From assembly GCA_027003075.1 (NCBI GenBank), contig JALWYV010000001.1, forward strand, positions 24,128 through 88,127: DNA of 64,000 bases. Direction: 5' to 3'. This DNA is from a candidate division WOR-3 bacterium (lineage in GTDB: Bacteria > Hydrothermota > Hydrothermia > LBFQ01). The notes below the pieces were generated by a model that was not told the DNA's origin, ran no database searches, and saw only the letters and a list, made by a program, of their open reading frames with translations. The position numbers were made by a program, and so were the translations under genes. Positions 2,288-52,865 of the stretch are shown in pieces. Every line of letters starts with the position of its first letter. The first letter of the stretch is position 1.

Positions 2288-3072
2288 ATCTTCCTAAAAA
2301 CTTCCTGACCCTCCTGCCACCACCGGCGGAGTGGTCCGATGAGAGGGTTGAGGAGTACATGGATGTAGCTGTAAAGTCCATCAGGAAACTGGGAAATGCC
2401 ACAGTTAACGTGCCTGAGGTCGTACCCTACGGCAGAAAGGAGGACAGACCCCTGCCCTTCCGTCCTAAGATGGACCTCCTCAGATTTGCCCGGATGTTGA
2501 AGGGAAGAGGCCTTGAGGTGTACACCGACCGCTACGCACCCCTGATGGAGAGGGAGGAGTTCCTGCGCTTTTTGAGGGAGGCCGTCGCCGTAGTTGACGG
2601 CGTGGTGGTAGTGGGGAGCGTGAGTTCAAGGATGGAGAACCCCGGATACACCGCCGTTGAGGGTATAAAACTGGCCAGAGAGTACTTTGAGAGCGTGGGT
2701 GCCATAACCGTATTTGAGAGGGATGGGGAGGTGGAGAGGGTATGCGAAAAGGCGAGAGCGGGAGCGACCTTCTTCCTGTCCCAGATAACCTTCTATCCAG
2801 AACGTGTGAGAGCCTTTCTATCCTCCCTGAGATCGGAGTGTGAGAGGAGGGGGATGGCCCTTCCCAGAGTTTACGTCAGCGTCGCCCCCGTCTATGGCGA
2901 GAAGGACAGGGAACTCCTTAGATGGATGGAAGTGGACGTCCCCCCTACCCCTCCGAACCTCATAACCCTCGTACGGGAGGTAAAAAAAGTACCCGGAGTT
3001 GCAGGTATAAACTACGAACATCTGAGGTACTCCAACCTACCCGTGCTGTACGACCTTGACCTTCCGGCGTAG
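2284..3072 (+). CDS. methylenetetrahydrofolate reductase-like (MetF-family-like) protein
   Basis: The C-terminal half is patterned like MetF ('ATFFLSQITFYP' ~ 'AITQFFFD'; 'GINYEHL' ~ 'DFHFYTLN'). The N-terminus has a 'LTLLPPP' segment like the MetF 'FEFFPPRT' segment. The match is weak and from memory only. Confidence 0.45.
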   Translation: MNLPKNFLTLLPPPAEWSDERVEEYMDVAVKSIRKLGNATVNVPEVVPYGRKEDRPLPFRPKMDLLRFARMLKGRGLEVYTDRYAPLMEREEFLRFLREAVAVVDGVVVVGSVSSRMENPGYTAVEGIKLAREYFESVGAITVFERDGEVERVCEKARAGATFFLSQITFYPERVRAFLSSLRSECERRGMALPRVYVSVAPVYGEKDRELLRWMEVDVPPTPPNLITLVREVKKVPGVAGINYEHLRYSNLPVLYDLDLPA

Positions 3073-3495
3073 GGTCTCCCTAAGGTTGGACTCCTGAATT
3101 ATGGACTCTATGGTTATGTCGGAGAGGATATCCTTTATCTTCGCCTGAACCCTGTTCCAGACGCTCCGGAGGACGCAGTCCGTAGCCGGCACGAAACACT
3201 CCTCCTCCCCTCCCGGTGTGAGACACTTTACCAGACCGTACTTCCCCTCAACGGCCTCTATCACGTCCAAAACGGTTATCTCGTAGGGCGGGAGGGCGAG
3301 CATGTACCCGCCCTTCTTACCCCTTATGCTCCGGACGAACCCCTTCCTCCTCAGCCTGACGAGGATCTGCTCAAGGAAGTTGGGGGGTATCCTCTCGGCC
3401 TTGGAGATCTGGGGTACGCTCATGGGCTCCTCGCTCAGGCCGAGTCTTACGAGGGCCTTCAGGGCGTACTCCACCTTTAGCGTAAACTTTAACAA
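3037..3495 (-). CDS. Rrf2-family transcriptional regulator (IscR/NsrR-like)
   Basis: Has the 'KVEYALKALVRL' N-terminal helix-turn-helix signature of Rrf2 proteins and is ~150 aa. Uses a TTG start. Confidence 0.8.
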   Translation of the reverse strand: MLKFTLKVEYALKALVRLGLSEEPMSVPQISKAERIPPNFLEQILVRLRRKGFVRSIRGKKGGYMLALPPYEITVLDVIEAVEGKYGLVKCLTPGGEEECFVPATDCVLRSVWNRVQAKIKDILSDITIESIIQESNLRETLRRKVKVVQHG

Positions 3496-3497
3496 AG

Positions 3498-3572
3498 AGG
3501 TGGCGCGGGGATTCGAACCCCGGAATAGCGGTTTTGCAAACCGCCGCCTTGGACCGCTTGGCTACGCCACCC
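3498..3572 (-). tRNA. tRNA-Cys (GCA)
   Basis: On the minus strand the sequence reads GGTGGCG...TTCGAATCC...CGCCACC. It folds into a cloverleaf with a 7-bp acceptor stem, a GGTTCGAATCC T-loop and an anticodon loop TT-GCA-AA. The CCA end is not encoded. Confidence 0.85.
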
Positions 3573-3586
3573 CGTAGGGACGGATA

Positions 3587-3937
3587 TTATAAAGGGGACG
3601 GATTTACTTCTTCCACCTTCTTCCAGTCAACGGGAGGGTGTCCCCTGAGATCGGCGAGTTTCTCCTTACCTATGAAGATCCAGATTCCAGCGGGGAACCT
3701 GTCCTTGTTCAGTCGGTAGAGTTCCCTCAGTTTCCGTTTTATCCTGTTCCGCCTCACAGCCCTTCTTACCCTTCTCTCCACAGCAAAAAGCACCTTCCTT
3801 TCGTTATGCGGAGCATACCTCAGGACGAAGTAGTCCGTTGATAGGACGGTACGGGAGTTCTTAAAGGCGTACCTTATCTCGTCCCTCCTACGGAGGATCT
3901 CCCCCTTCTTCAGGGTGTACCTACCTCCCATCCTCAA
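3587..3937 (-). CDS. rnpA: ribonuclease P protein component
   Basis: ~116 aa basic protein with the 'RNRIKRKLRELYR' RnpA signature. Confidence 0.75.
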   Translation of the reverse strand: MRMGGRYTLKKGEILRRRDEIRYAFKNSRTVLSTDYFVLRYAPHNERKVLFAVERRVRRAVRRNRIKRKLRELYRLNKDRFPAGIWIFIGKEKLADLRGHPPVDWKKVEEVNPSPL

Positions 3938-18982: not shown

Positions 18983-19689
18983 GTTTCAATCCCTTGGCTG
19001 CAAACTATACGTGGGCAATAGATCCGTTCTGGTGAAAAGACGGTTTCAATCCCTGTTTCAATCCCTTATAGGTAGGCTGAAAACGCACATACCCGTGGGC
19101 TAAATCGCATTAGTCTGGGGAGTTTCAATCCCTTATAGGTAGGCTGAAAACAGTAAAGATGATGCATGGAAAGTTGTGCAGAAAATGCGGTTTCAATCCC
19201 TTATAGGTAGGCTGAAAACGAGCCTGTTGGGGAGGATGAAGACGACCCCTCTTAACAGTTTCAATCCCTTATAGGTAGGCTGAAAACTACCGTATTAGGG
19301 GCAATTTCCCAGTACTCGCCCTTGTTTCAATCCCTTATAGGTAGGCTGAAAACGCTGAAAACTGGGAGAGGACGGCGGCGACCGTGGATAGTTTCAATCC
19401 CTTATAGGTAGGCTGAAAACGTGAGAGTAGGGCGGGGCCCGGTAGTCGCTTCGGGTAGTTTCAATCCCTTATAGGTAGGCTGAAAACCTATCACCATGCC
19501 GGTGGCCCACTGAAGGAGTCGTAGTTTCAATCCCTTATAGGTAGGCTGAAAACTCCGTTTTGTTCAGGTACGTACTTAAATTTGAACCAAGTTTCAATCC
19601 CTTATAGGTAGGCTGAAAACGAATAAAGGAGAATGGAAAAGTAGTGCACGAGTTTAAACGTTTCAATCCCTTATAGGTAGGCTGAAAAC
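18983..19689 (-). CRISPR. CRISPR array of 10 full 30-nt repeats, one truncated repeat, one degenerate terminal repeat and 9 spacers
   Basis: Perfect 30-nt repeats start at 19055, 19122, 19190, 19258, 19324, 19391, 19458, 19524, 19591 and 19660. Spacers are 36-39 nt and all different. A degenerate copy lies at 18983-19005. I infer minus-strand orientation because the leader-like region is on the right and the minus-strand repeat ends in ATTGAAAC. Confidence 0.9.
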
Positions 19690-42563: not shown

Positions 42564-42908
42564 TTATAAGGAAGTTCGCGGCTTTTTTCGTGGCAGGTCA
42601 GAAGTATCTATACCGTACTTGCTCAGGTAGGCCCTTACGAGAAGTTTGAAGAACTTCGTATGTTTCCCGTCCATCAGCTTAAGATGAACCAGCTCGTGTA
42701 CTATCACCTCGTGGCGGAATCGGGCGGGTTGTTTGAGCAGCTCGCTGTTTAAGGTGAGCCTCCCCCTCGTTGAGACGCTCGCCCACTTGCGTTTCATCGG
42801 CCTTACGTGTATCTCCCTCAGCCTGTCCTCAACCCCTATTCTCCTCGCCCATGTCCAGACCTCGGCGATGAGAACATCCCGCATTACGTCATCCCTCATA
42901 TCTCTCAT
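42564..42908 (-). CDS. YgjP-like (DUF45/M48-family) zinc metallopeptidase, short form
   Basis: 'HEVIVHELVHL' is the HExxH motif. It overlaps the hsdR 3' end by 20 nt, a known hsdR-associated position. Confidence 0.65.
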   Translation of the reverse strand: MRDMRDDVMRDVLIAEVWTWARRIGVEDRLREIHVRPMKRKWASVSTRGRLTLNSELLKQPARFRHEVIVHELVHLKLMDGKHTKFFKLLVRAYLSKYGIDTSDLPRKKPRTSL

Positions 42909-45804
42909 CCTCTATCCTCCTAAGTAATCTGAGTATGTCGTTCGTCCACGGCACGACGTCCTTTATTCCGGCCCCAAGGAGGATTTTGTAAATCCTCTTC
43001 CTAAGTCTCCCCTCCTGTGTGGAGCTCCTGCCCCAATAAGGGAACTCCTTCAGGGCTTCGTCTATACCGGTGGCCAGTTTTTCGGAGGTTTCTGGATCCA
43101 TTTCCTTCTGCACGCGCATCCACCACTTTACGGCGAAGGCCTTGCCGGAGAGATGGGTTTCCTTCATCTGTCTCCGGGCCTCCTTTATTTCCCTTACGAG
43201 CCTTTCCAGTTCCTTCAGGGCCTGCCTGCTGTTTATCTGTCTCTCCTCAAAGGCTTTCCTTATCCTCTCCGCCCTCTCTCCTATGGGAATGAGGTAGGGT
43301 TCTTCCCTCCCTTCCTGTGCCACCAGCCGGGCTATGGTGTTCAGGAGGTTGAACATCCTTACGGTTTCGGGTGTGTGTCTTGCCGCAAGGAGGGTCTCAA
43401 GCGTTTCGGGGGTTATCTCGTAGGTTTCGTTCAAAAAGTTAAGCTTTGACGTGTGGGTGTTCCTCTGTACTATCTCAGCCGTTTTCCTGAGGAAGGATTT
43501 ACTGACGTCAACCTTCGGATCGTAGGCGTTTCTGAGTACCCTGTACATCTCCGCCAGTTTCCTGTAGTCCTCTATGAAAGGGCGCAGGAAAGGGTCCGGG
43601 GATATTACCTCGTAGAGTTCCTGAAGTTCGCGGAAGAACCTGTAAAACTCCTCCCTCTTATCCCTGTCCCGAAACCTCTCCAACAGGGCATCGGCCATCC
43701 TGTCGGCGCTCCCCACGTTGAGAAAACTCAGGTATTCCGTTTTTCCGGCCCGTATCAGCTCCGCGAAGCGCTCCTTCAGGACGTCAATCCCCTCCACGAC
43801 CCCCTTTATGTCCTCGGAGTCAAAGGTCAGCGCCCTCTCAAGGTTGTCAAATATGCCGACGAAGTCTATTATCAGGCCGTTGGTCTTCTTGCGGCCGCTT
43901 TCGTCCTCGTAAGGGCGGTTCACTCTGGCGATGGCCTGAAGGAGGACGTGGTCCCGCATGGGTTTGTCAAGGTACATGGCGTAGAGGATAGGGGCGTCGT
44001 AGCCGGTCAGGAGTTTTTCCGTGACGATGAGGATCTTAGGGTTTTCGTCGGGTTTCCTGAAGGCCTTCCTTATGCGGGTCTCCTCCTCGTCGTTCAGGTG
44101 GTAGCGCTTCAGATGGGGAGGGTCGTTGTGGCCCCGGCTTATCACGACCTCGCTGTATTCAGGGGGCAGGTACCTGTCCAGAGCCTCCTTGTAGAGGACA
44201 CACGCCTCCCTATCCACGGCCACAAGGAAGGCCTTGTACCCCATAGGTTCAACGTTGTTTTTGAAGTGATCGGCGACGAAACGGGCGATCTTATCCACCC
44301 TCTCGCTGTTCTTCAGCATGTTTTTGAGCCTGACAGCCCTATCCAATACCCGGTTTATCTCCTCAATGTCGGCCACCCCCTCAAGGGCAGCGGCCTCCCA
44401 GAACTCCTTTTCCATGGTCACCCTGTCAACTACGAGGTCGTTCGGTGCCATCTGGTAGTAGAGGGGAACGGTCGTCCCGTCCTCTATGGACTCCTTTATG
44501 GAGTACTTGTCAAGGTAACCCCTCGGAGGGTCGTCTGCTCCGAAGACCTTGAAGGTACCCTTCCCCTTGCTCGTCTTGTCTATCGGCGTGCCGGTGAATC
44601 CTATAAACGTGGCGTTGGGGAGCGCCCCCATAAGGTAGTTTCCGAGGTCCCCGCCCGTTGATCTGTGGGCCTCGTCTATCAGGACGATTATGTTGGAGCG
44701 GGTGTTTAGATTGGCGTCCGCTTTATCAAACTTATGGATCATGGAAACTATCAGGCCGCGGGTGTCACTCTTGAGGAGTTCCCGCAGGTGTCTTTTGCTC
44801 TTCGCAACGTGAAGGTTGCCGAAGCCCACGGCCTCAAGGTTCTGGAAGAGCTGTTGCTGGAGTTCGTTCCTGTCCACTATCATGAGGACGGTGGGGTTCT
44901 CAAATCTCGGGTCCTCCAGTATCAACCTCGCAATTGTTATCATGGTGTAGGTCTTACCGGAACCCTGCGTGTGCCATACGAGGCCGCGCCGTTTTATGGG
45001 GTCTCTTGCCCTGCCTATAACCTTCCTCACAGCCCGCATCTGGTGGGGTCTCAGAACGACTTTGGAGAGTTCCCCGTCTCTGCGTACGAACAGGATATAA
45101 TCTCTCAGGACCTTCAGGACCCTCTGCGGAGATATAAAGGTTTTTACGAGGGTCTCAAAGTCCCCGGCCTGCTCATCTTTGTAATTGAACAGCGCCTTTC
45201 TGGATAGGTTCCACGTGGGTCCGTAGAAGAACCGGACCCGGTTCGTCAGGGCATATATCTGGCTCTGAACCATGAGTTCGGGGCCCTCTTCGTGGTACCT
45301 GCGTATCTGGTCGTGGGCCTCCGGTATCCCCTCCATCTTCGTGGGTGATTTGGCCTCAAGGATTATTACGGGTATGCCGTTGATGAGGAAGACGACGTCA
45401 GGCCGTATTACGGCCGCACCACTGACAAAACGGAACTCCTCCGTAACGTGGAACGTGTTGTTGCGTGGATTTTTGAAGTCAACGAGACGGACGTTCTTCT
45501 CCCTTTTCTCCACCTCAACGAAAACGGTTTTAAGGCCCTTCAGGTACTCCCACGCCTCGTAATTCCCCTCTATGTTGAGCTTCACCCTTACGAGCCTGTC
45601 TATTACCTCTTCGGCCTTTGTCCTGTTCGTTATGGTAGTGGGGTTGAGTCTCTGAAGCTGCTCTATCAGGATGCTCCGCAGTACGGGGCTGCTCTCCCCT
45701 CCCCTCAGTCTCAGGGCCTCGTCCGGAGGAAGGTACTCCCAACCCACCTCTTGAGCGTGCTGTATTATCGGGTTCTGAACGGTGTGGCGTTCGGAGAACA
45801 TCAC
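42889..45804 (-). CDS. hsdR: type I restriction enzyme R subunit
   Basis: 971 aa with an N-terminal nuclease domain and SF2 helicase motifs ('WHTQGSGKTYTM', 'IVDRNELQQQ', 'DEAHRS'). Host-like GC content. Confidence 0.9.
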   Translation of the reverse strand: MMFSERHTVQNPIIQHAQEVGWEYLPPDEALRLRGGESSPVLRSILIEQLQRLNPTTITNRTKAEEVIDRLVRVKLNIEGNYEAWEYLKGLKTVFVEVEKREKNVRLVDFKNPRNNTFHVTEEFRFVSGAAVIRPDVVFLINGIPVIILEAKSPTKMEGIPEAHDQIRRYHEEGPELMVQSQIYALTNRVRFFYGPTWNLSRKALFNYKDEQAGDFETLVKTFISPQRVLKVLRDYILFVRRDGELSKVVLRPHQMRAVRKVIGRARDPIKRRGLVWHTQGSGKTYTMITIARLILEDPRFENPTVLMIVDRNELQQQLFQNLEAVGFGNLHVAKSKRHLRELLKSDTRGLIVSMIHKFDKADANLNTRSNIIVLIDEAHRSTGGDLGNYLMGALPNATFIGFTGTPIDKTSKGKGTFKVFGADDPPRGYLDKYSIKESIEDGTTVPLYYQMAPNDLVVDRVTMEKEFWEAAALEGVADIEEINRVLDRAVRLKNMLKNSERVDKIARFVADHFKNNVEPMGYKAFLVAVDREACVLYKEALDRYLPPEYSEVVISRGHNDPPHLKRYHLNDEEETRIRKAFRKPDENPKILIVTEKLLTGYDAPILYAMYLDKPMRDHVLLQAIARVNRPYEDESGRKKTNGLIIDFVGIFDNLERALTFDSEDIKGVVEGIDVLKERFAELIRAGKTEYLSFLNVGSADRMADALLERFRDRDKREEFYRFFRELQELYEVISPDPFLRPFIEDYRKLAEMYRVLRNAYDPKVDVSKSFLRKTAEIVQRNTHTSKLNFLNETYEITPETLETLLAARHTPETVRMFNLLNTIARLVAQEGREEPYLIPIGERAERIRKAFEERQINSRQALKELERLVREIKEARRQMKETHLSGKAFAVKWWMRVQKEMDPETSEKLATGIDEALKEFPYWGRSSTQEGRLRKRIYKILLGAGIKDVVPWTNDILRLLRRIEDERYEG

Positions 45805-46313
45805 AGGAAGATATTATATACGATTTGAGCGACCATAAATATTGCCGTAACCAAATACATACAGGCAAAAATTTTGGGAATTAGTGCCTCATAAGAGGTA
45901 AACGGCTTATAAATTTTGGGATGTTTCCCTTGTTTTAATATTTCCCATTCCGCGGTATATGGCTTCACTGGTAGATAATTTTCTAAAGCATGTATAACCT
46001 TAAATTTGCCGCTATTCATTCGTTTATATGAATTTATAAGATCCCCCCATAGCATTGCTATTGCGAATCCTACTAATGAAGCGGGGATTATGAAAAGTGC
46101 ATTTGATGTTTTAAAGGAATACATTATCACCCCGAGAATGGCTGAGTTGATAGTTATGAATAAATTATTCGTCTTATGCCGTCTTTCGCTTATATTGTCC
46201 GTCATTTTTACATAAAGTTTATAAATTTCTAATAGATGATCTTCATATTTATTACCATATCTCTCTTTTTCCAAACCCCTTATAAAATTCGAAAGTTCCA
46301 ACTCCTTATGCAT
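45801..46313 (-). CDS. small three-helix membrane protein (170 aa), candidate effector partner of the TIR protein
   Basis: Three hydrophobic helices (LFITINSAILGVIMYSF, LFIIPASLVGFAIAMLWGDLI and the C-terminal IFACMYLVTAIFMVAQIVYNIFL). It overlaps the TIR gene by 8 nt and hsdR by 4 nt, and is AT-rich. Confidence 0.5.
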   Translation of the reverse strand: MHKELELSNFIRGLEKERYGNKYEDHLLEIYKLYVKMTDNISERRHKTNNLFITINSAILGVIMYSFKTSNALFIIPASLVGFAIAMLWGDLINSYKRMNSGKFKVIHALENYLPVKPYTAEWEILKQGKHPKIYKPFTSYEALIPKIFACMYLVTAIFMVAQIVYNIFL

Positions 46314-46725
46314 TTGCCCATTTTCGTATTGCTCTAACTATAGATTCTGTATTCCATCCAACAATCTCATTAGCGTTTTCCCTTACTTTTCTGGATATTT
46401 TAATCTGACCTCTTGGAACTATTGCAATAATTGGTTTAGGAATTGCAAATTCTTTCTTCGCTATTAATATTTCCTTCTGTATCCATTTACTGTATGTTGC
46501 ATATACTCCAGCCAAAACTAAAACCACATGGCATGATTTCATCTGGTTCTTTATGGCTTCATAAAGTTCTCTATCACTACCGGAGGTATGAATAGGATCA
46601 TCTGGGGGAACAGAATAATCCTTAAATTTAAAATATTTACGCTTTTGTAGGAGATTTATTAATCTCCTATAATGATCCTCATATGTCCATGAATGGCTGA
46701 TAAACAGGTTATACGTCTTTACCAT
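46306..46725 (-). CDS. TIR-like domain protein (DUF1863, Thoeris ThsB-like)
   Basis: 'YNLFISHSWTYED...' matches the ThsB 'VFFSFHYQD' start. '...SKWIQKEILIAKKEFAIPKPIIAI' matches ThsB 'RRWVRYEIMKSIEKGNKIIGI'. 139 aa and AT-rich. Confidence 0.65.
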   Translation of the reverse strand: MVKTYNLFISHSWTYEDHYRRLINLLQKRKYFKFKDYSVPPDDPIHTSGSDRELYEAIKNQMKSCHVVLVLAGVYATYSKWIQKEILIAKKEFAIPKPIIAIVPRGQIKISRKVRENANEIVGWNTESIVRAIRKWANA

Positions 46726-46748
46726 TTTTTGCCTCCTTTAGGTAGATA

Positions 46749-47528
46749 TTATAAGCCCGGATGAACGTCAAGTGGGCAGCTCTCAACCCTCCACCTGAAT
46801 ATTTCATGCTGGACCTCCACAGCCGAACGGTTATCCTTTATGACACCCGCCCACTCCCACGAGAATTCAGCTCTCTTATCCCCTTCAACGAACTTCAAAA
46901 ATCTTCTAAAGGCGATAAAATAATGCTGTACAAGTGATTTGAAAGTATCCTTCGCCTCCATCAAAACGTTCTCTTTTATGCTGATTTTATTTTCCATCCA
47001 GAACATAAAAACGAAGAGTAAAACCTCAACCTTAAGGGACAGATTTATAGAGTCTTTTAGACTCTCCGCTATCTCCGGTCTGTAGATCAAGATAATCGCC
47101 CAAACGGGATGTGAAAACATGGAACGCATAAAATCCGGGTACGTTATACTTTTGAAGTCAAAACTTTTGAATTCTTCAGGTGATTCGTTCAAGACCGTAC
47201 GGATTAGTTTGGATGAGGATTTAACGATCGGTACCAGATAGTTTTCAACATAGGGGAACATATCTATAAGCTGCGGATGGTCTTTGAACCCCTCACCAAT
47301 CCGTTCTATTCCCTCAACTATATCCACTCCCTCCCATTCTTCTGCAAGTTTAGAAAGGACAAGGAACCTTATCTGAAGCAAGGTCGTTAATATTTCCTTA
47401 TCCTCCAACATCTCTGACACATCTTCGTGGCTCTCAACCAGCTCCCTGAACCTCTCAATCAACTCCCTCCCCTTCTCGTCTTCCATCTCCTCAATCATCC
47501 CCGGCGCCAAAATCTCCAACATAGGCAC
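46749..47528 (-). CDS. hypothetical protein (259 aa) inside the defense island
   Basis: ORF with AT-rich codon usage like its neighbours. Contains an 'RELVESH' (R-x5-H) motif of uncertain meaning. Confidence 0.45.
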   Translation of the reverse strand: MPMLEILAPGMIEEMEDEKGRELIERFRELVESHEDVSEMLEDKEILTTLLQIRFLVLSKLAEEWEGVDIVEGIERIGEGFKDHPQLIDMFPYVENYLVPIVKSSSKLIRTVLNESPEEFKSFDFKSITYPDFMRSMFSHPVWAIILIYRPEIAESLKDSINLSLKVEVLLFVFMFWMENKISIKENVLMEAKDTFKSLVQHYFIAFRRFLKFVEGDKRAEFSWEWAGVIKDNRSAVEVQHEIFRWRVESCPLDVHPGL

Positions 47529-47530
47529 GT

Positions 47531-48877
47531 TTATTTTACAGCCGAACCGTCCCCCTCAAACTGCTTGACGAACTCCTTTGGCAGACGCCTTCGGGCCGTT
47601 AAGAGGTCGTGGAGGAGGGTTTTAAAGAGCGTATCTAACGCTTCCACCTTCTTCCTCTCAGCCTCTATTTTGTCATCCACGGCCTTCAGAATTTCGGCTA
47701 TGTGTTTCTGCTCGTGGAGAGGAGGGAGGGGGATGGGGAGAGAAATTAAAAGTGACTTTGGAAGTCTTTGCCGTCCCGTCGTTCCTTCCATCTTACTCGA
47801 TAGATTTTGGCGAACTTTTGGATACTTCAGATAATATGCTAGATAAAACAAATTCAAAGAGCTTTTTTCGTCTGTCCATATTGGAAAAACTTCTGTCGTA
47901 GCGTAACCCCATTCTCCGGGAATACTCTTAACTATTCCCTGTTTTCCGTTCTCAAAACTCGGTGTTATTCGTGCTACCAGTAAATCCCCTTCTTTTACCA
48001 AAACCCCACTTTTAACGTCCTCCCTGCGTCTCATCTCCCACCGCTCTATAAACATAAATTCATCAGGGATAAGACTCATAGGAATGAATGGAATACTATC
48101 CCCACTTAACTTTACCCCTTTGTGTCCGATCTTTACCACCTCCCCCAACCGCACCACCTCCCAATGTTCCGGGATCTTTCCGACTTCCGTTTCCTTCAAC
48201 TTCACCTTATCAACCTCGTCAAGAGGCACGGGGCCGTAGGTGAATAGGTGCCTCATCAAAGACTTCTTGAGTTCCTTGAGAGCCTTTATAACGTTTTCGG
48301 TCTTCTCCTTCGCCTCCTGCACAGCCCTTAAGACGTAGGCGATGGCCCTCTGCTCCGGTAGAGGGGGGAGGGGGAAAAGAACTTTCAGAAAATCTTGGGG
48401 CTTTAGATTTTTTCTCCTGTGGACGACGTTGGAAGCAAAACGCATGTACTGGGAAATCATAAAAGGTTGTTTAACTAACCAGTTAAGAAAATCTAGATCT
48501 ACATCCTTGCGAACTATATCCCACACGTGATAAGCCGGACTCACTGCTCCGATGGGATAATTAGAAACCGCAAGAACACCTTCATTGATGGGAAATCCAT
48601 ATACAAGTTACCCCTTTAACACCACTTTATAATTACTTATATCGCGTCCTGCCACCCTTTTTTTAAATTTTTTAAACTGGGGTATCAATCCGTCGTATCT
48701 AGTAATGGAGAGTATAATACCCTTAAAACTTTGCTCTAAATCCTTTACACGTAGTGAGCTTTTCCTAAACAAATCAGCCCCTTTGACCACCTCCCACTCC
48801 TCCGGCAAAGGCCCTAACTCTGTCATTCTGTGGCCGGGAGGGAAATTGTTAGATTTAATCATTTTTGTTCTGTTCAT
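47531..48877 (-). pseudogene. hsdS: type I restriction specificity subunit HsdS interrupted by one in-frame TAA
   Basis: The 89-aa ORF (48608-48877, 'LPEEWEVVKGADL') and the 337-aa ORF (47531-48544) share one reading frame. They are separated only by a TAA at 48608-48610 and 21 sense codons. Together they make about 448 aa with two target-recognition domains. Confidence 0.6.
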
Positions 48878-50519
48878 GTTGTGTTCCTGTTTTAACTAAA
48901 TGTTTTATCTTGTCAATCATATTTTTTATGTATGTCCATCCCTCGTGATCCCGGTCCGGATCCAATCTCCGTACCGCTTCTCTTGCTATAAATGGTTTAC
49001 CTGTAGATCCTTCATCTTTTGCTTTCTTTTCTAATTCTCTATAATTCGGGAAATATTGCCTCATAGCATTTTCAAAATTTTTCCCAAATATAGTAAACTT
49101 ATCCTCTACAATCCAGTCATTGGCTGATATCAAATCGCCAATTTCATTTTCGTCGTTTATTCCTACTGAACGCAAAACATCTTTACGTTTTATTCCTTGC
49201 TTGTCATCTGTTATATCGTTGTCAAAAATAATATATGTAGGTATACCGTAAGAAGTAAAAAATCTATACCATTTAGCAAGATTTCCCTTGCCGCCTACAC
49301 TTATTATAGCAATACCTTCTTTTTCCAATTGAAAGTACTGCTTTTCAAAAAGTTCTGGCAATGCAAATACTTCAGTAGGCCCTTCTACAAGTATTATAGC
49401 ACGTGCGAAAAAACCTGAAAGAATTTCAGGGGATGCATGAACACTGTAATACGGGATTACCGTGTCTTCATTAACCTTATCGGAAGGAGCCCCTAATTTT
49501 ATAAGACTGTTGGACAGATCTTTGCGGGTTAACTGTCGGGTCCTTGTAGCACCGTTCTCCTTATATACAAGGACTAATCCTTCCAAGTTTTCTATTGATA
49601 GAAATTCAGGGCTATGGGTTGTTATGAGTATTTGGAGTCCCTCCTGAGCTCTGCTGCGGAGCTTTTTGGCAAGCCATTTTTGTGCAAGCGGATGCAAATG
49701 GGCTTCAGGTTCTTCAATAATTAGCAGTATTCCACCGTGAAAGGCTTTTGCATAAGAGTATGCAAGTGTTAGAGCCAAAATTTGTTGTTCACCAGTCCCC
49801 ATCTCTTCCAGAGAAACAACAGTCTCCCCTTCTATGGCTTGTAGTTTTAATGCATGAAAGTAATTTGCTGGATTATAAGCTTCAAAATCCACTTCAAGAC
49901 GATGCTGCATTCCATCAATCATATCATTAAACTCTGTTTGTAAATCATCAACAAATTGTTTGAATGGGGATATCTTGAGAAATTCTTCTTTAATTTGTTC
50001 GAATAATCCATTAAGGTTATTTACTACCTCATTGTGTTCTTTTAAATGTTTATGGAACCTTCTCATAATTCTACTAAGCAATGTCCATTTAGAAGAATAG
50101 CTCAGGTGATAAGAGAGGTTTCTTTCTGCTTCAACCACAACTGCAATGCAGTCTTCTCTATCTTCATTTCTAATATATCTTGCTTCTCCGTGACTGATTC
50201 CTTTATAATACACCGGAATATCTTCTAATGGATTGTATCGCCATATGATAGCTTCAAACTTCCCTGCAAGAGGAGGATCAAATTTTGCGCTAATTTCAAT
50301 CGTATTACTCCTATCTCTACCGAAAAATTCAAAATCTTCAGGGTCGTAATTACCTGGCCAGACAGGCCCCAGAAGTAACCGTATCGCTTTGACTATATTA
50401 GATTTTCCGGCATTATTTTCTCCTATTAATACTACATGACCTGTTTCAGGAAAAACTATTTTCACAGGATCCTTAATAGAACGGTATCCCGAAATTCTTA
50501 TTTCCCTAATCCTACCCAT
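48855..50519 (-). CDS. OLD-family ATP-dependent endonuclease (ABC-type ATPase plus C-terminal TOPRIM), single-gene class 1-like
   Basis: Walker A 'GENNAGKSN', Walker B '[13 protein letters not shown]', H-loop '[10 protein letters not shown]'. The C-terminal TOPRIM has 'ILVEGPTE' and 'IFDNDITDD'. AT-rich. Overlaps hsdS by 23 nt. Confidence 0.8.
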
Positions 50520-50793
50520 TCTCCCCCTCCATCCTAACCCCCAGTACCCTCAACACCTCCCACAACCTCCTGTCCGCCTCCCTCCTCTCGTCCTCCACGA
50601 TCTGCAGGGCCACATCCCGGCTCCCGTACTCCATCGCCAGGGCCTTTATCTCGTCCTCAAAGACGTCCGAAAGGCGCTTGAGGAAAATGAGTGGCAGTAT
50701 GTAGTCCTTGAACTTCGGGGCGTCAATCGGCCCCCTTATCACCGAGGCGGCTTCCCACAACCAGTTTTCAAGCGTCTTTATGCTCAACGCCAT
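50512..50793 (-). pseudogene. hsdM: HsdM N-terminal domain remnant (93 aa); the methyltransferase domain is absent
   Basis: '[41 protein letters not shown]' is the HsdM_N signature. The ORF ends in a divergent tail whose TAG overlaps the OLD ATG (ATGGGTAG). accD follows immediately, so no catalytic domain can be present. Confidence 0.55.
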
Positions 50794-50829
50794 AGAGCCG
50801 GAGGGTATTATAAGAGGGAGCAGAACCCC

Positions 50830-51678
50830 TCACCTTATGCCCGCAGTCATCATATCAAGGAGGCGGGCTATGGTACGCTTCATCTCCCTCCTGTCCACCA
50901 CCAGGTCCACCTGCCCATGCTCCAGCTGGAACTCGCTCCTCTGGAATCCGGGAGGGAGGTCCTGCCCTATGGTCTGCTTTATCACCCTCGGCCCGGCAAA
51001 ACCAATAAGGGCGTTCGGTTCTGCTATTATCACGTCCCCTAACGCCGCAAAGCTGGCCATAACACCGCCCATGGTCGGGTCCCCGAGGACGGTTATGTAC
51101 GGAACCCCTCTCTCCTCCAGTTGTATGACCCCCACGGTGGTCTTCACCATCTGCATTAACGAAAATATCCCCTCGTGCATCCTCGCCCCGCCCCCGGAGA
51201 AGAGGACGGCTATGAGAGGTACGCGTTTACGTCGGGACTCCCTTGCCGCTCTGTAGAACTTCTCCCCGAAGACCGACCCCATTGACCCCCCAAGGAAGGC
51301 GAAGTCCGTGAAGAACCCCACCACCTTCCTACCGAATATGTGTCCTATCCCGGCCACGCTGCTGTCTTTGAGGCCGTACAGCCTCTCGTACTTGCGCATC
51401 TTATCCTTGTATCCGGGGAAGTTCAGGGGGTCCGCGGAGACGAGGTTCGCCCCGATCTCCTTCTCTATGCCCTCGTCAAAGAGGAGGTTGGCGTACTCGT
51501 ACGCCCCTATACGGAAGTGATAGCCGCACTTCGGACACACCTTGGCGTTGGCCGTCAGGTCCGGGTTCGGGAGGATGCTCCCGCAGGAGGGACACTTTAC
51601 CCAGAAGTCGTCCGGTATGCTTATCCGGGACTTCTTTTTCGGGGGTGGTACCTTCTTCTTTTTCCTGCGGAAGAACAT
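50830..51678 (-). CDS. accD: acetyl-CoA carboxylase carboxyltransferase subunit beta
   Basis: Zinc ribbon 'CPSCGSILPNPDLTANAKVCPKCGYHFR' and a carboxyltransferase domain. The start at 51678 overlaps the upstream gene's stop (ATGA). The track ORF is over-extended. Confidence 0.9.
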   Translation of the reverse strand: MFFRRKKKKVPPPKKKSRISIPDDFWVKCPSCGSILPNPDLTANAKVCPKCGYHFRIGAYEYANLLFDEGIEKEIGANLVSADPLNFPGYKDKMRKYERLYGLKDSSVAGIGHIFGRKVVGFFTDFAFLGGSMGSVFGEKFYRAARESRRKRVPLIAVLFSGGGARMHEGIFSLMQMVKTTVGVIQLEERGVPYITVLGDPTMGGVMASFAALGDVIIAEPNALIGFAGPRVIKQTIGQDLPPGFQRSEFQLEHGQVDLVVDRREMKRTIARLLDMMTAGIR

Positions 51679-52865
51679 CAGGCCACCTCCACGCCCTCGT
51701 ACACGATCTTCTTCCAGAGCGTACCTACCTCCCTGACCCTGTCGGCCACGTACTCCTTTATGTCCTGAAGCTCCGTATCCGTCACCCCACCCCACACCCT
51801 CGTATGGACGAGCTGGGGTTCGTTGATGGGCCTCCCGATCTGGGAGACGAGGTAGATGTAAACGTTCTCAACGGCCGGGAACCTCTCCACCACCTCCCTC
51901 GCTATCATGTTGGCGGCTACGTTGTATATCTTCCCCACGTGGGAGACGGGGTTTTTGCCGGCCGCGGCCTCAAGGGTCATGGGTCTGTAGGGGGTTATGA
52001 GGCCGTTCACACGGTTCCCCCTTCCCACCTGACCGTCGTCCCCCGCCTCAGCGCTGGTGCCGGTTACGGTTATGTAAACCGACCCCCTCCCGTAGTCGTC
52101 GGCCACGTTGATCTCAACCGACAGGGGGTAATCCCCAAGTATCTCCTTGGCGCGTACGTACACGTCGTTCTGGACCCTCGTCTTCAGTTCCCTGTAGTGT
52201 TTGACGTCCTTCACGTACCTGTCAACGAAGGCGAGGGCCACGGTGATCCGGTAGGTCTTGAGGTCCCTCACCACCATCACCTTTATGTCCTCTCCCACGA
52301 AGGGGTTGTCAGATTTGTACTGGGGTGAATTAAGGAAACGTTCCACCTCGTAGGCCAGCTTTTCGGCCTTCGTCAAAGGGTAGAAGCCAACGCCGAAGGA
52401 CGTGTCGTTGGCAAGGGGAACCCCACCCTCCCTCTCAAAGAGGTCGGTGAGGTCCTCGCTTCCGGCCCGCGCCTTCAGGTATAGGTTGATGTGCCGGTCA
52501 ACGTCAAGGTGGGGGAGGTTCCTGCGGAGCCACTCCTTCGTCGTCTCGTAGTAGATCTCCTCTATCTCCTTACGGAACTCCTCCCCCCTGTACCGGTAGG
52601 TTGCTCTCCCCACGAGGGTGAACTCTATAGGTTCCTTTATCTCCCCTCCTCCGAATCTGGGTGAGGCCTCCCCGCCAACGAGGATGGCCTTGTCAAGGTT
52701 GTGATGCAGTATCTTCCCGAACCTGCCGATGTAAAAACGGGAAAGGGCCCTGCTGTACTCCTCCGCGAGGCTGTCGCATATGGTGTCAGGGTGTCCCGTA
52801 CCCTTACGCTCCACTATCTCAAAGTCTCCCATGAAGGGTGCCGTCTCCAGATCTATCCTGACCAT
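51678..52865 (-). CDS. mat: S-adenosylmethionine synthetase, archaeal-type (MAT)
   Basis: 395 aa with 'ERKGTGHPDTICDSLAEE' near the N-terminus, the archaeal AdoMet synthetase signature. It is not the bacterial MetK pattern. Confidence 0.8.
   Translation of the reverse strand: MVRIDLETAPFMGDFEIVERKGTGHPDTICDSLAEEYSRALSRFYIGRFGKILHHNLDKAILVGGEASPRFGGGEIKEPIEFTLVGRATYRYRGEEFRKEIEEIYYETTKEWLRRNLPHLDVDRHINLYLKARAGSEDLTDLFEREGGVPLANDTSFGVGFYPLTKAEKLAYEVERFLNSPQYKSDNPFVGEDIKVMVVRDLKTYRITVALAFVDRYVKDVKHYRELKTRVQNDVYVRAKEILGDYPLSVEINVADDYGRGSVYITVTGTSAEAGDDGQVGRGNRVNGLITPYRPMTLEAAAGKNPVSHVGKIYNVAANMIAREVVERFPAVENVYIYLVSQIGRPINEPQLVHTRVWGGVTDTELQDIKEYVADRVREVGTLWKKIVYEGVEVA

Follow-up and report, generated by a model that had tools for sequence, protein, structure and literature searches.

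The known functional truncations of HsdS, such as those of EcoDXXI and NgoAV, retain TRD1 and CR1, and 'embedded' systems in Type I R-M loci have reportedly been described by Payne et al. NgoAV, whose truncated HsdS keeps a whole TRD together with a CR, is a documented example of dimerisation by such shortened subunits, with palindromic motifs as the outcome (bioRxiv 10.64898/2026.01.10.698759). Defence genes embedded in a Type I cluster include TgvAB in V. cholerae VPI-2 (PMC11411939) and PrrC in EcoprrI (PMC12707154). The locus analyzed here lies in a 64 kb stretch of DNA (the whole of which is called the window below) and has the minus-strand gene order hsdM remnant, OLD nuclease, hsdS pseudogene, 259-aa protein, TIR, 8xMP, and hsdR. 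Judged from its sequence, the hsdS gene is very probably (at a probability of roughly 0.88) a genuine, recently formed pseudogene whose Type I R-M locus was itself inactivated not long ago. The loss of hsdS to a nonsense codon during the decay of such a locus is a real but commonplace event.

The hsdS reading frame and its internal TAA codon

The composite hsdS frame (47531..48877, minus strand) comprises 448 codons, interrupted once by a stop and free of frameshifts. Its three minus-strand pieces (48877..48608, then 48607..48545, then 48544..47531) share one frame; the coordinates and the peptide quoted for them in the initial annotation were exact, and the composite of 448 codons was confirmed. 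The 5' fragment (48611..48877, minus strand) contains 89 codons for the N-terminal conserved motif RMTELGPLPEEWEVV and the first half of TRD1. It includes neither a helical conserved region nor a complete TRD, and on its own it has no Pfam match. The premature TAA stop follows at 48608..48610 (minus strand), which is codon 90, in the middle of TRD1. From the stop to the next possible start there are 21 sense codons (LVYGFPINEGVLAVSNYPIGA; 48545..48607, minus strand) that continue TRD1. The 3' part (47531..48544, minus strand) has 337 codons from a GTG and covers the second half of TRD1, CR1 (approximately 48373..48230), TRD2 (approximately 48172..47738), and CR2 (approximately 47737..47534). 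The public gene call for this part begins at an internal ATG, resulting in a protein of 309 aa (P0001). In the 358 codons that remain beyond the TAA, the N-terminal half of TRD1 is missing.

Two stretches of the composite match Pfam Methylase_S (PF01420; E=4e-22), as had been predicted. The structure of M. jannaschii HsdS (1YF2) aligns without a break over residues 16-250, spanning the stop and the 21-codon linker, and the alignment resumes at residues 337-432. Thousands of HsdS matches to the composite were obtained in a search of approximately 5.8 billion proteins. Among the matches listed, the best full-length proteins have 427-476 aa, 53-69% identity, and 94-98% query coverage; many full-length HsdS proteins are 53-58% identical to the composite. 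In an alignment of 16 sequences, the composite is colinear end to end with full-length HsdS, from the N-terminal motif MTELGPLPEEWEVV on, and keeps every one of the 48 invariant columns, which concentrate in LPPLPEQRAIA...LFTYGP and LPPL.EQ...L. PF01420 and colinearity with the homologues and 1YF2 assign to the pseudogene an N-terminal motif, TRD1, CR1, TRD2, and CR2; the two TRDs, the central and C-terminal helical regions, and the N-terminal motif of an HsdS are all present, and what is absent is an uninterrupted frame. If the TAA is read through, the composite is a complete, colinear two-domain HsdS. The one-frame geometry, the two PF01420 matches, the colinearity across 16 sequences, and 1YF2 together uphold the proposal that hsdS is split by a single in-frame TAA and is otherwise a full two-TRD subunit.

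The linker is identical at 18 of 21 positions to the corresponding segment of P0011 (LVYGFPINEGVLAISPYPLGA), which indicates that it is a true continuation of TRD1, as first suggested; P0008 is also closely similar. Downstream of the stop, 65 of 78 TRD1 positions are identical to P0011. Across the stop position, the homologues with the same TRD1 read KGQLVYGFPINEGV (P0008) and RGQLVYGFPINEGV (P0011), with Gln at the stop codon, and their genes have CAA (P0008, locus L070) and CAG (P0011, locus L074) where the window has TAA. Other, more distant HsdS homologues have Q or E at the position of codon 90. Because the closest relatives with the same TRD1 have Gln there, the most economical explanation is that the TAA arose by a single C>T transition at window position 48610 (minus strand), which would have converted the CAA codon of Gln-90 in mid-TRD1.

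The hsdM remnant, the embedded cargo, and related loci

The hsdM remnant (50512..50793, minus strand) encodes 93 aa, in which HsdM residues 1-72 are joined in frame to approximately the last 24, and HsdM_N matches it at positions 1-59 of 135 only. The deletion gap was mapped by alignment to the full HsdM proteins of L002 (530 aa) and L070 (528 aa): approximately 433 codons (residues ~73 to 505) are gone, and the whole N6_Mtase domain is lost with them. At the junction there is a short repeated motif (EDERRE/EEERAE microhomology), and adjacent imperfect direct repeats are located at 50566-50596. Read from this alignment, the 93-aa ORF is an in-frame internal deletion and not a simple truncation. 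An identical remnant is present in assembly L069 (ENA ERZ23491050 scaffold_1995, SAMN10217877; reached via cluster member P0122) and in an independent Logan assembly (SRR14510437, contig L076; 100% identical), the latter also confirming the junction between the remnant and the OLD gene. No second hsdM was found within the 64 kb window. When the remnant was used as the query against 5.8 billion proteins, the matches listed were limited to short HsdM_N fragments and the identical 93-aa product, with no near-identical full-length HsdM in a listing that appears to favour short proteins. The initial annotation had described hsdM as gone, which needs correction in that an in-frame remnant survives at 50793..50512, but holds for the deleted methyltransferase domain; its reading of the locus as decaying agrees with an adjacent hsdM that has no catalytic domain.

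The hsdR gene (42889..45804, minus strand) is intact and encodes 971 aa (966-987 aa in relatives) with HSDR_N, SWI2_SNF2, ResIII, and T1R_D3 (TIGR00348, 511 bits). With regard to what a Type I R-M system requires, the nuclease and SF2 motor domains of HsdR are present at the locus, and the N6-adenine methyltransferase domain of HsdM is absent from the 64 kb window.

Between the hsdM remnant and hsdS lies a gene of approximately 35% GC for an OLD-family ATPase/TOPRIM nuclease of 554 aa (48855..50519, minus strand; AAA_15 and OLD-like_TOPRIM; PADLOC 'Old' 1e-47, GajA-like next), whose start overlaps the stop of the hsdM remnant and whose end overlaps the start of hsdS. The OLD nuclease stands alone, no GajB-like helicase partner being seen. 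Between hsdS and hsdR, Pfam and PADLOC searches identified a ThsB-like TIR protein of 139 aa (46306..46725, minus strand) and an 8xMP octameric membrane protein of 170 aa (45801..46313, minus strand). These two genes overlap by 8 nt, have approximately 33% GC, and are not accompanied by ThsA; they may form a two-gene TIR/membrane-effector defence module embedded in the locus. Immediately downstream of hsdS is a gene for a 259-aa protein (46749..47528, minus strand) without a Pfam or PADLOC family, whose homologue in a Thermotogota MAG, at 36% identity, is a 185-aa ORF located between hsdS and hsdR (L002 6742-7299, minus strand). The two proteins share a conserved C-terminal motif, FSWxW...VQHEI(F/Y)RWR, and the L002 homologue has the opposite orientation relative to hsdS. 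In addition, an intergenic segment of L005 (12535-12633) matches 99 bp across the start of the 259-aa gene (47466-47564) at 86% identity. The GC content of 45800-50500 is 33-45%, compared with approximately 55% in the flanks, and hsdR and the hsdM remnant are flank-like. This profile fits foreign cargo and variable TRDs inserted into a resident hsd scaffold. A promoter and terminator scan of 47300-51000 gave counts not above those of shuffled sequence.

Elsewhere in the window, a CRISPR array (19055-19689, plus strand) has at least 10 identical 30-nt repeats (Rfam CRISPR-DR2) spaced by approximately 67 nt. A gene for AdoMet synthase (51678-52865, minus strand; Pfam AdoMet_Synthase, PF01941, which we take to be an archaeal-type family) is located beside accD, RtcB, and ParAB in what is apparently a bacterial (WOR-3-like) genome.

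The nearest hsdR (83% nucleotide identity) was found in a candidate division WOR-3 MAG (L005), where the order is hsdS, DarT-Macro fusion, DUF3800, and hsdR, with no hsdM within 10 kb. In the Thermotogota MAG (L002), the order is hsdM, unknown gene, Piwi-domain protein, unknown gene, hsdS, DarT-Macro fusion, and hsdR. The cargo between the hsd genes thus differs among the window, L002, and L005. The DarT-Macro fusion, of approximately 406-410 aa, is located between hsdS and hsdR in both relatives (L005 11278-12498, L002 5564-6796). The Piwi-domain protein of L002 (433 aa, 2521-3822), encoded between hsdM and hsdS, is possibly a short prokaryotic Argonaute. An intact hsdS with no hsdM within 10 kb was observed in the relatives L005, L001, and L072, and such loci may point to a trans-acting HsdM in this clade.

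If hsdS is indeed such a pseudogene, translation from the native start would halt at 89 residues, which is half a recognition domain without a helical conserved region, and the product would be expected neither to adopt a TRD fold nor to bind DNA or pair with HsdM. The GTG of the 3' part is preceded by GGAG at a spacing of just 2 nt, and the internal ATG has no Shine-Dalgarno sequence ahead of it; the 3' fragment would have no credible ribosome-binding site and hence would presumably not be expressed. Independently, hsdM has lost its methyltransferase core by in-frame deletion between short direct repeats. In view of the subunit requirements of Type I systems (PMC11411939), without HsdM neither the M2S1 methylase nor the R2M2S1 nuclease could assemble from this locus. 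The intact HsdR would be a stranded subunit, and the OLD and TIR/8xMP cargo, whose frames are intact, presumably still act independently. Since hsdS has one lesion and keeps all conserved positions, its inactivation is probably recent. Either lesion, that of hsdM or that of hsdS, may have come first. The initial annotation expected selection on hsdS to be relaxed once hsdM was gone; the available hsdS copies are identical in TRD1, come from what is essentially one strain, and show just this one lesion.

For annotation, the 89-aa and 309/337-aa ORFs belong together under a single hsdS pseudogene entry, and the 93-aa 'HsdM_N protein' is to be marked as a deletion remnant. It would be wrong to include the locus among active Type I R-M systems or to base a methylation-motif prediction on it.

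A second hsdS copy, other assemblies, and competing readings

An intact hsdS of 454 aa (P0002/P0121) was found on scaffold_312 (L072 10001-11365), from the same sample as L069. It has another TRD1, but shares 92% nucleotide identity with the window in its CR1-TRD2-CR2 part. The tetranucleotide profiles of scaffold_312 and the window correlate at r=0.967, compared with 0.952 for two parts of the window against each other, and on this basis scaffold_312 may come from the same genome as the window. Over 19,753 bp, L069 aligns to the window ungapped at 99.909% identity, and all 18 differences fall in TRD2 (window 47860-48179; L069 10282-10601), each matching the state of scaffold_312. This 18-SNP patch would reflect either gene conversion between the paralogues or assembler cross-talk. 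In addition, TRDs are shuffled among relatives: L072 combines a TRD1-B with the TRD2 of the window, and L001 combines TRD1-B (95% nucleotide identity) with another TRD2. The hsdS of L072 is an orphan among housekeeping genes and adjoins a mad3-like AAA ATPase. Orphan intact hsdS genes occur in both L072 and L001 (9890-11290), which are WOR-3-like contigs with no hsdM or hsdR within 10 kb.

These observations are what speaks for an alternative that we regard as unlikely, namely that the broken hsdS is a silent cassette that swaps TRDs and CRs by gene conversion, as donor or acceptor, with an unlinked intact paralogue of the P0002/P0121 type in the same genome, forming a reservoir for specificity switching. 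Under it, the 18-SNP patch in TRD2 would be explained, TRD shuffling would need neither an inverton nor a recombinase, and a functional hsdS could be restored. Against it, neither inverted repeats nor a recombinase gene are found near hsdS, the copies are on different scaffolds that are not shown to share one genome, and assembler cross-talk between similar sequences accounts for the mosaic patch just as well. Moreover, without hsdM, such switching would have no phenotype.

Inverted repeats flanking hsdS and a recombinase among its neighbouring genes were both searched for and not found, and an inverton or shufflon was rejected on these grounds. Nor does hsdS show the features of a phase-variable switch: there is no slippage-prone repeat tract at the disruption, and its origin is a substitution.

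The lack of a credible Shine-Dalgarno sequence at either candidate start (GTG or ATG) also bears on a reading with somewhat smaller chances still, in which the 3' ORF (CR1-TRD2-CR2, 309-337 aa) is translated as a dimerising single-TRD half-HsdS and gives palindromic specificity with an HsdM encoded elsewhere. Dimerising truncated HsdS proteins with palindromic motifs are documented (NgoAV; bioRxiv 10.64898/2026.01.10.698759), the 3' fragment keeps both helical regions and the whole of TRD2, and relatives carry hsdS without a nearby hsdM. However, the local hsdM is destroyed, and an unfolded half of TRD1 would remain at the N-terminus of the fragment. The known functional truncations, those of EcoDXXI and NgoAV, keep TRD1 and CR1, unlike the fragment in the window.

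A sequencing or assembly error, with CAA as the true codon and an intact hsdS, is very improbable. The window is apparently a metagenome-derived contig, hsdS is repeat-like and shared with paralogues, and the 18-SNP mosaic patch in TRD2 of the second assembly indicates that local consensus problems occur in this gene. However, that patch is at a distance of 430-750 bp, within sequence that the paralogue also carries, whereas TRD1 occurs at this locus alone, and the stop is preceded only by GGGG and lies outside any long homopolymer. The same TAA was found in L069, and again, together with an identical TRD1, in L078 (ERZ23491340 scaffold_274611, SAMN10217878), which encodes the exact 89-aa product. 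TRD1 around the TAA is 100% identical in the window, L069, and L078; these three assemblies represent one near-identical strain, a near-clonal population in sister samples, and not independent evolutionary lineages. They exclude a random assembly error. The Logan contig (L076) ends 175 bp short of the TAA. No intact copy of this hsdS allele is among the best 120 matches listed from the 5.8 billion proteins searched, and among them the 309-aa truncated call alone reaches 100% identity. When JGI metagenome contigs were scanned for the exact pattern across the stop, with N at the mutated base, there was no match at all, and no CAA allele was recovered in this way.

Programmed read-through or stop-codon reassignment, with TAA as a sense codon here, has practically no prospect of being correct, since nothing beyond the in-frame position of the stop favours it, TAA is in ordinary use as a stop (of the 49 stop-free stretches with 250 or more codons in the six frames of the whole window, 17 end in TAA, as does the hsdS composite itself), reassignment was rejected on this usage, and we know of no bacterial TAA-to-Gln recoding in this kind of lineage.

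Because the TAA recurs in two other assemblies from two BioSamples and is not recoded, the evidence argues for a reproducible nonsense allele. Of the two origins initially offered for the stop, nonsense or sequencing error, the first is retained and the second falls away, the TAA recurring in L069 and L078, from two BioSamples.

Comparison with known systems

The hsdS gene of the window has the same architecture as Type I HsdS (PF01420; 1YF2), consisting of the N-terminal motif, TRD1, CR1, TRD2, and CR2, and it is situated between the hsdM remnant and hsdR. It differs by the TAA at codon 90 and by a partner hsdM that has no catalytic domain.

With NgoAV HsdS200 of N. gonorrhoeae and with inverton hsdS loci such as SpnD39III, the hsdS gene of the window shares a shortened frame and the presence in the community of extra copies with common conserved regions. 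In contrast to these systems, its frame was shortened by a base substitution and not by the slip of a repeat tract, and its N-terminal product stops inside TRD1, without the helical region for dimerising.

The locus further indicates that a Type I locus can die, by hsdM deletion and hsdS nonsense, while its embedded defence genes stay intact, which is consistent with Type I loci being landing pads for other defence cargo. As in the Type I loci with embedded defence (PrrC, TgvAB), unrelated defence genes are located between the hsd genes of the window and vary among relatives; the difference is that here the host R-M system itself has been inactivated and the frames of its cargo are intact.
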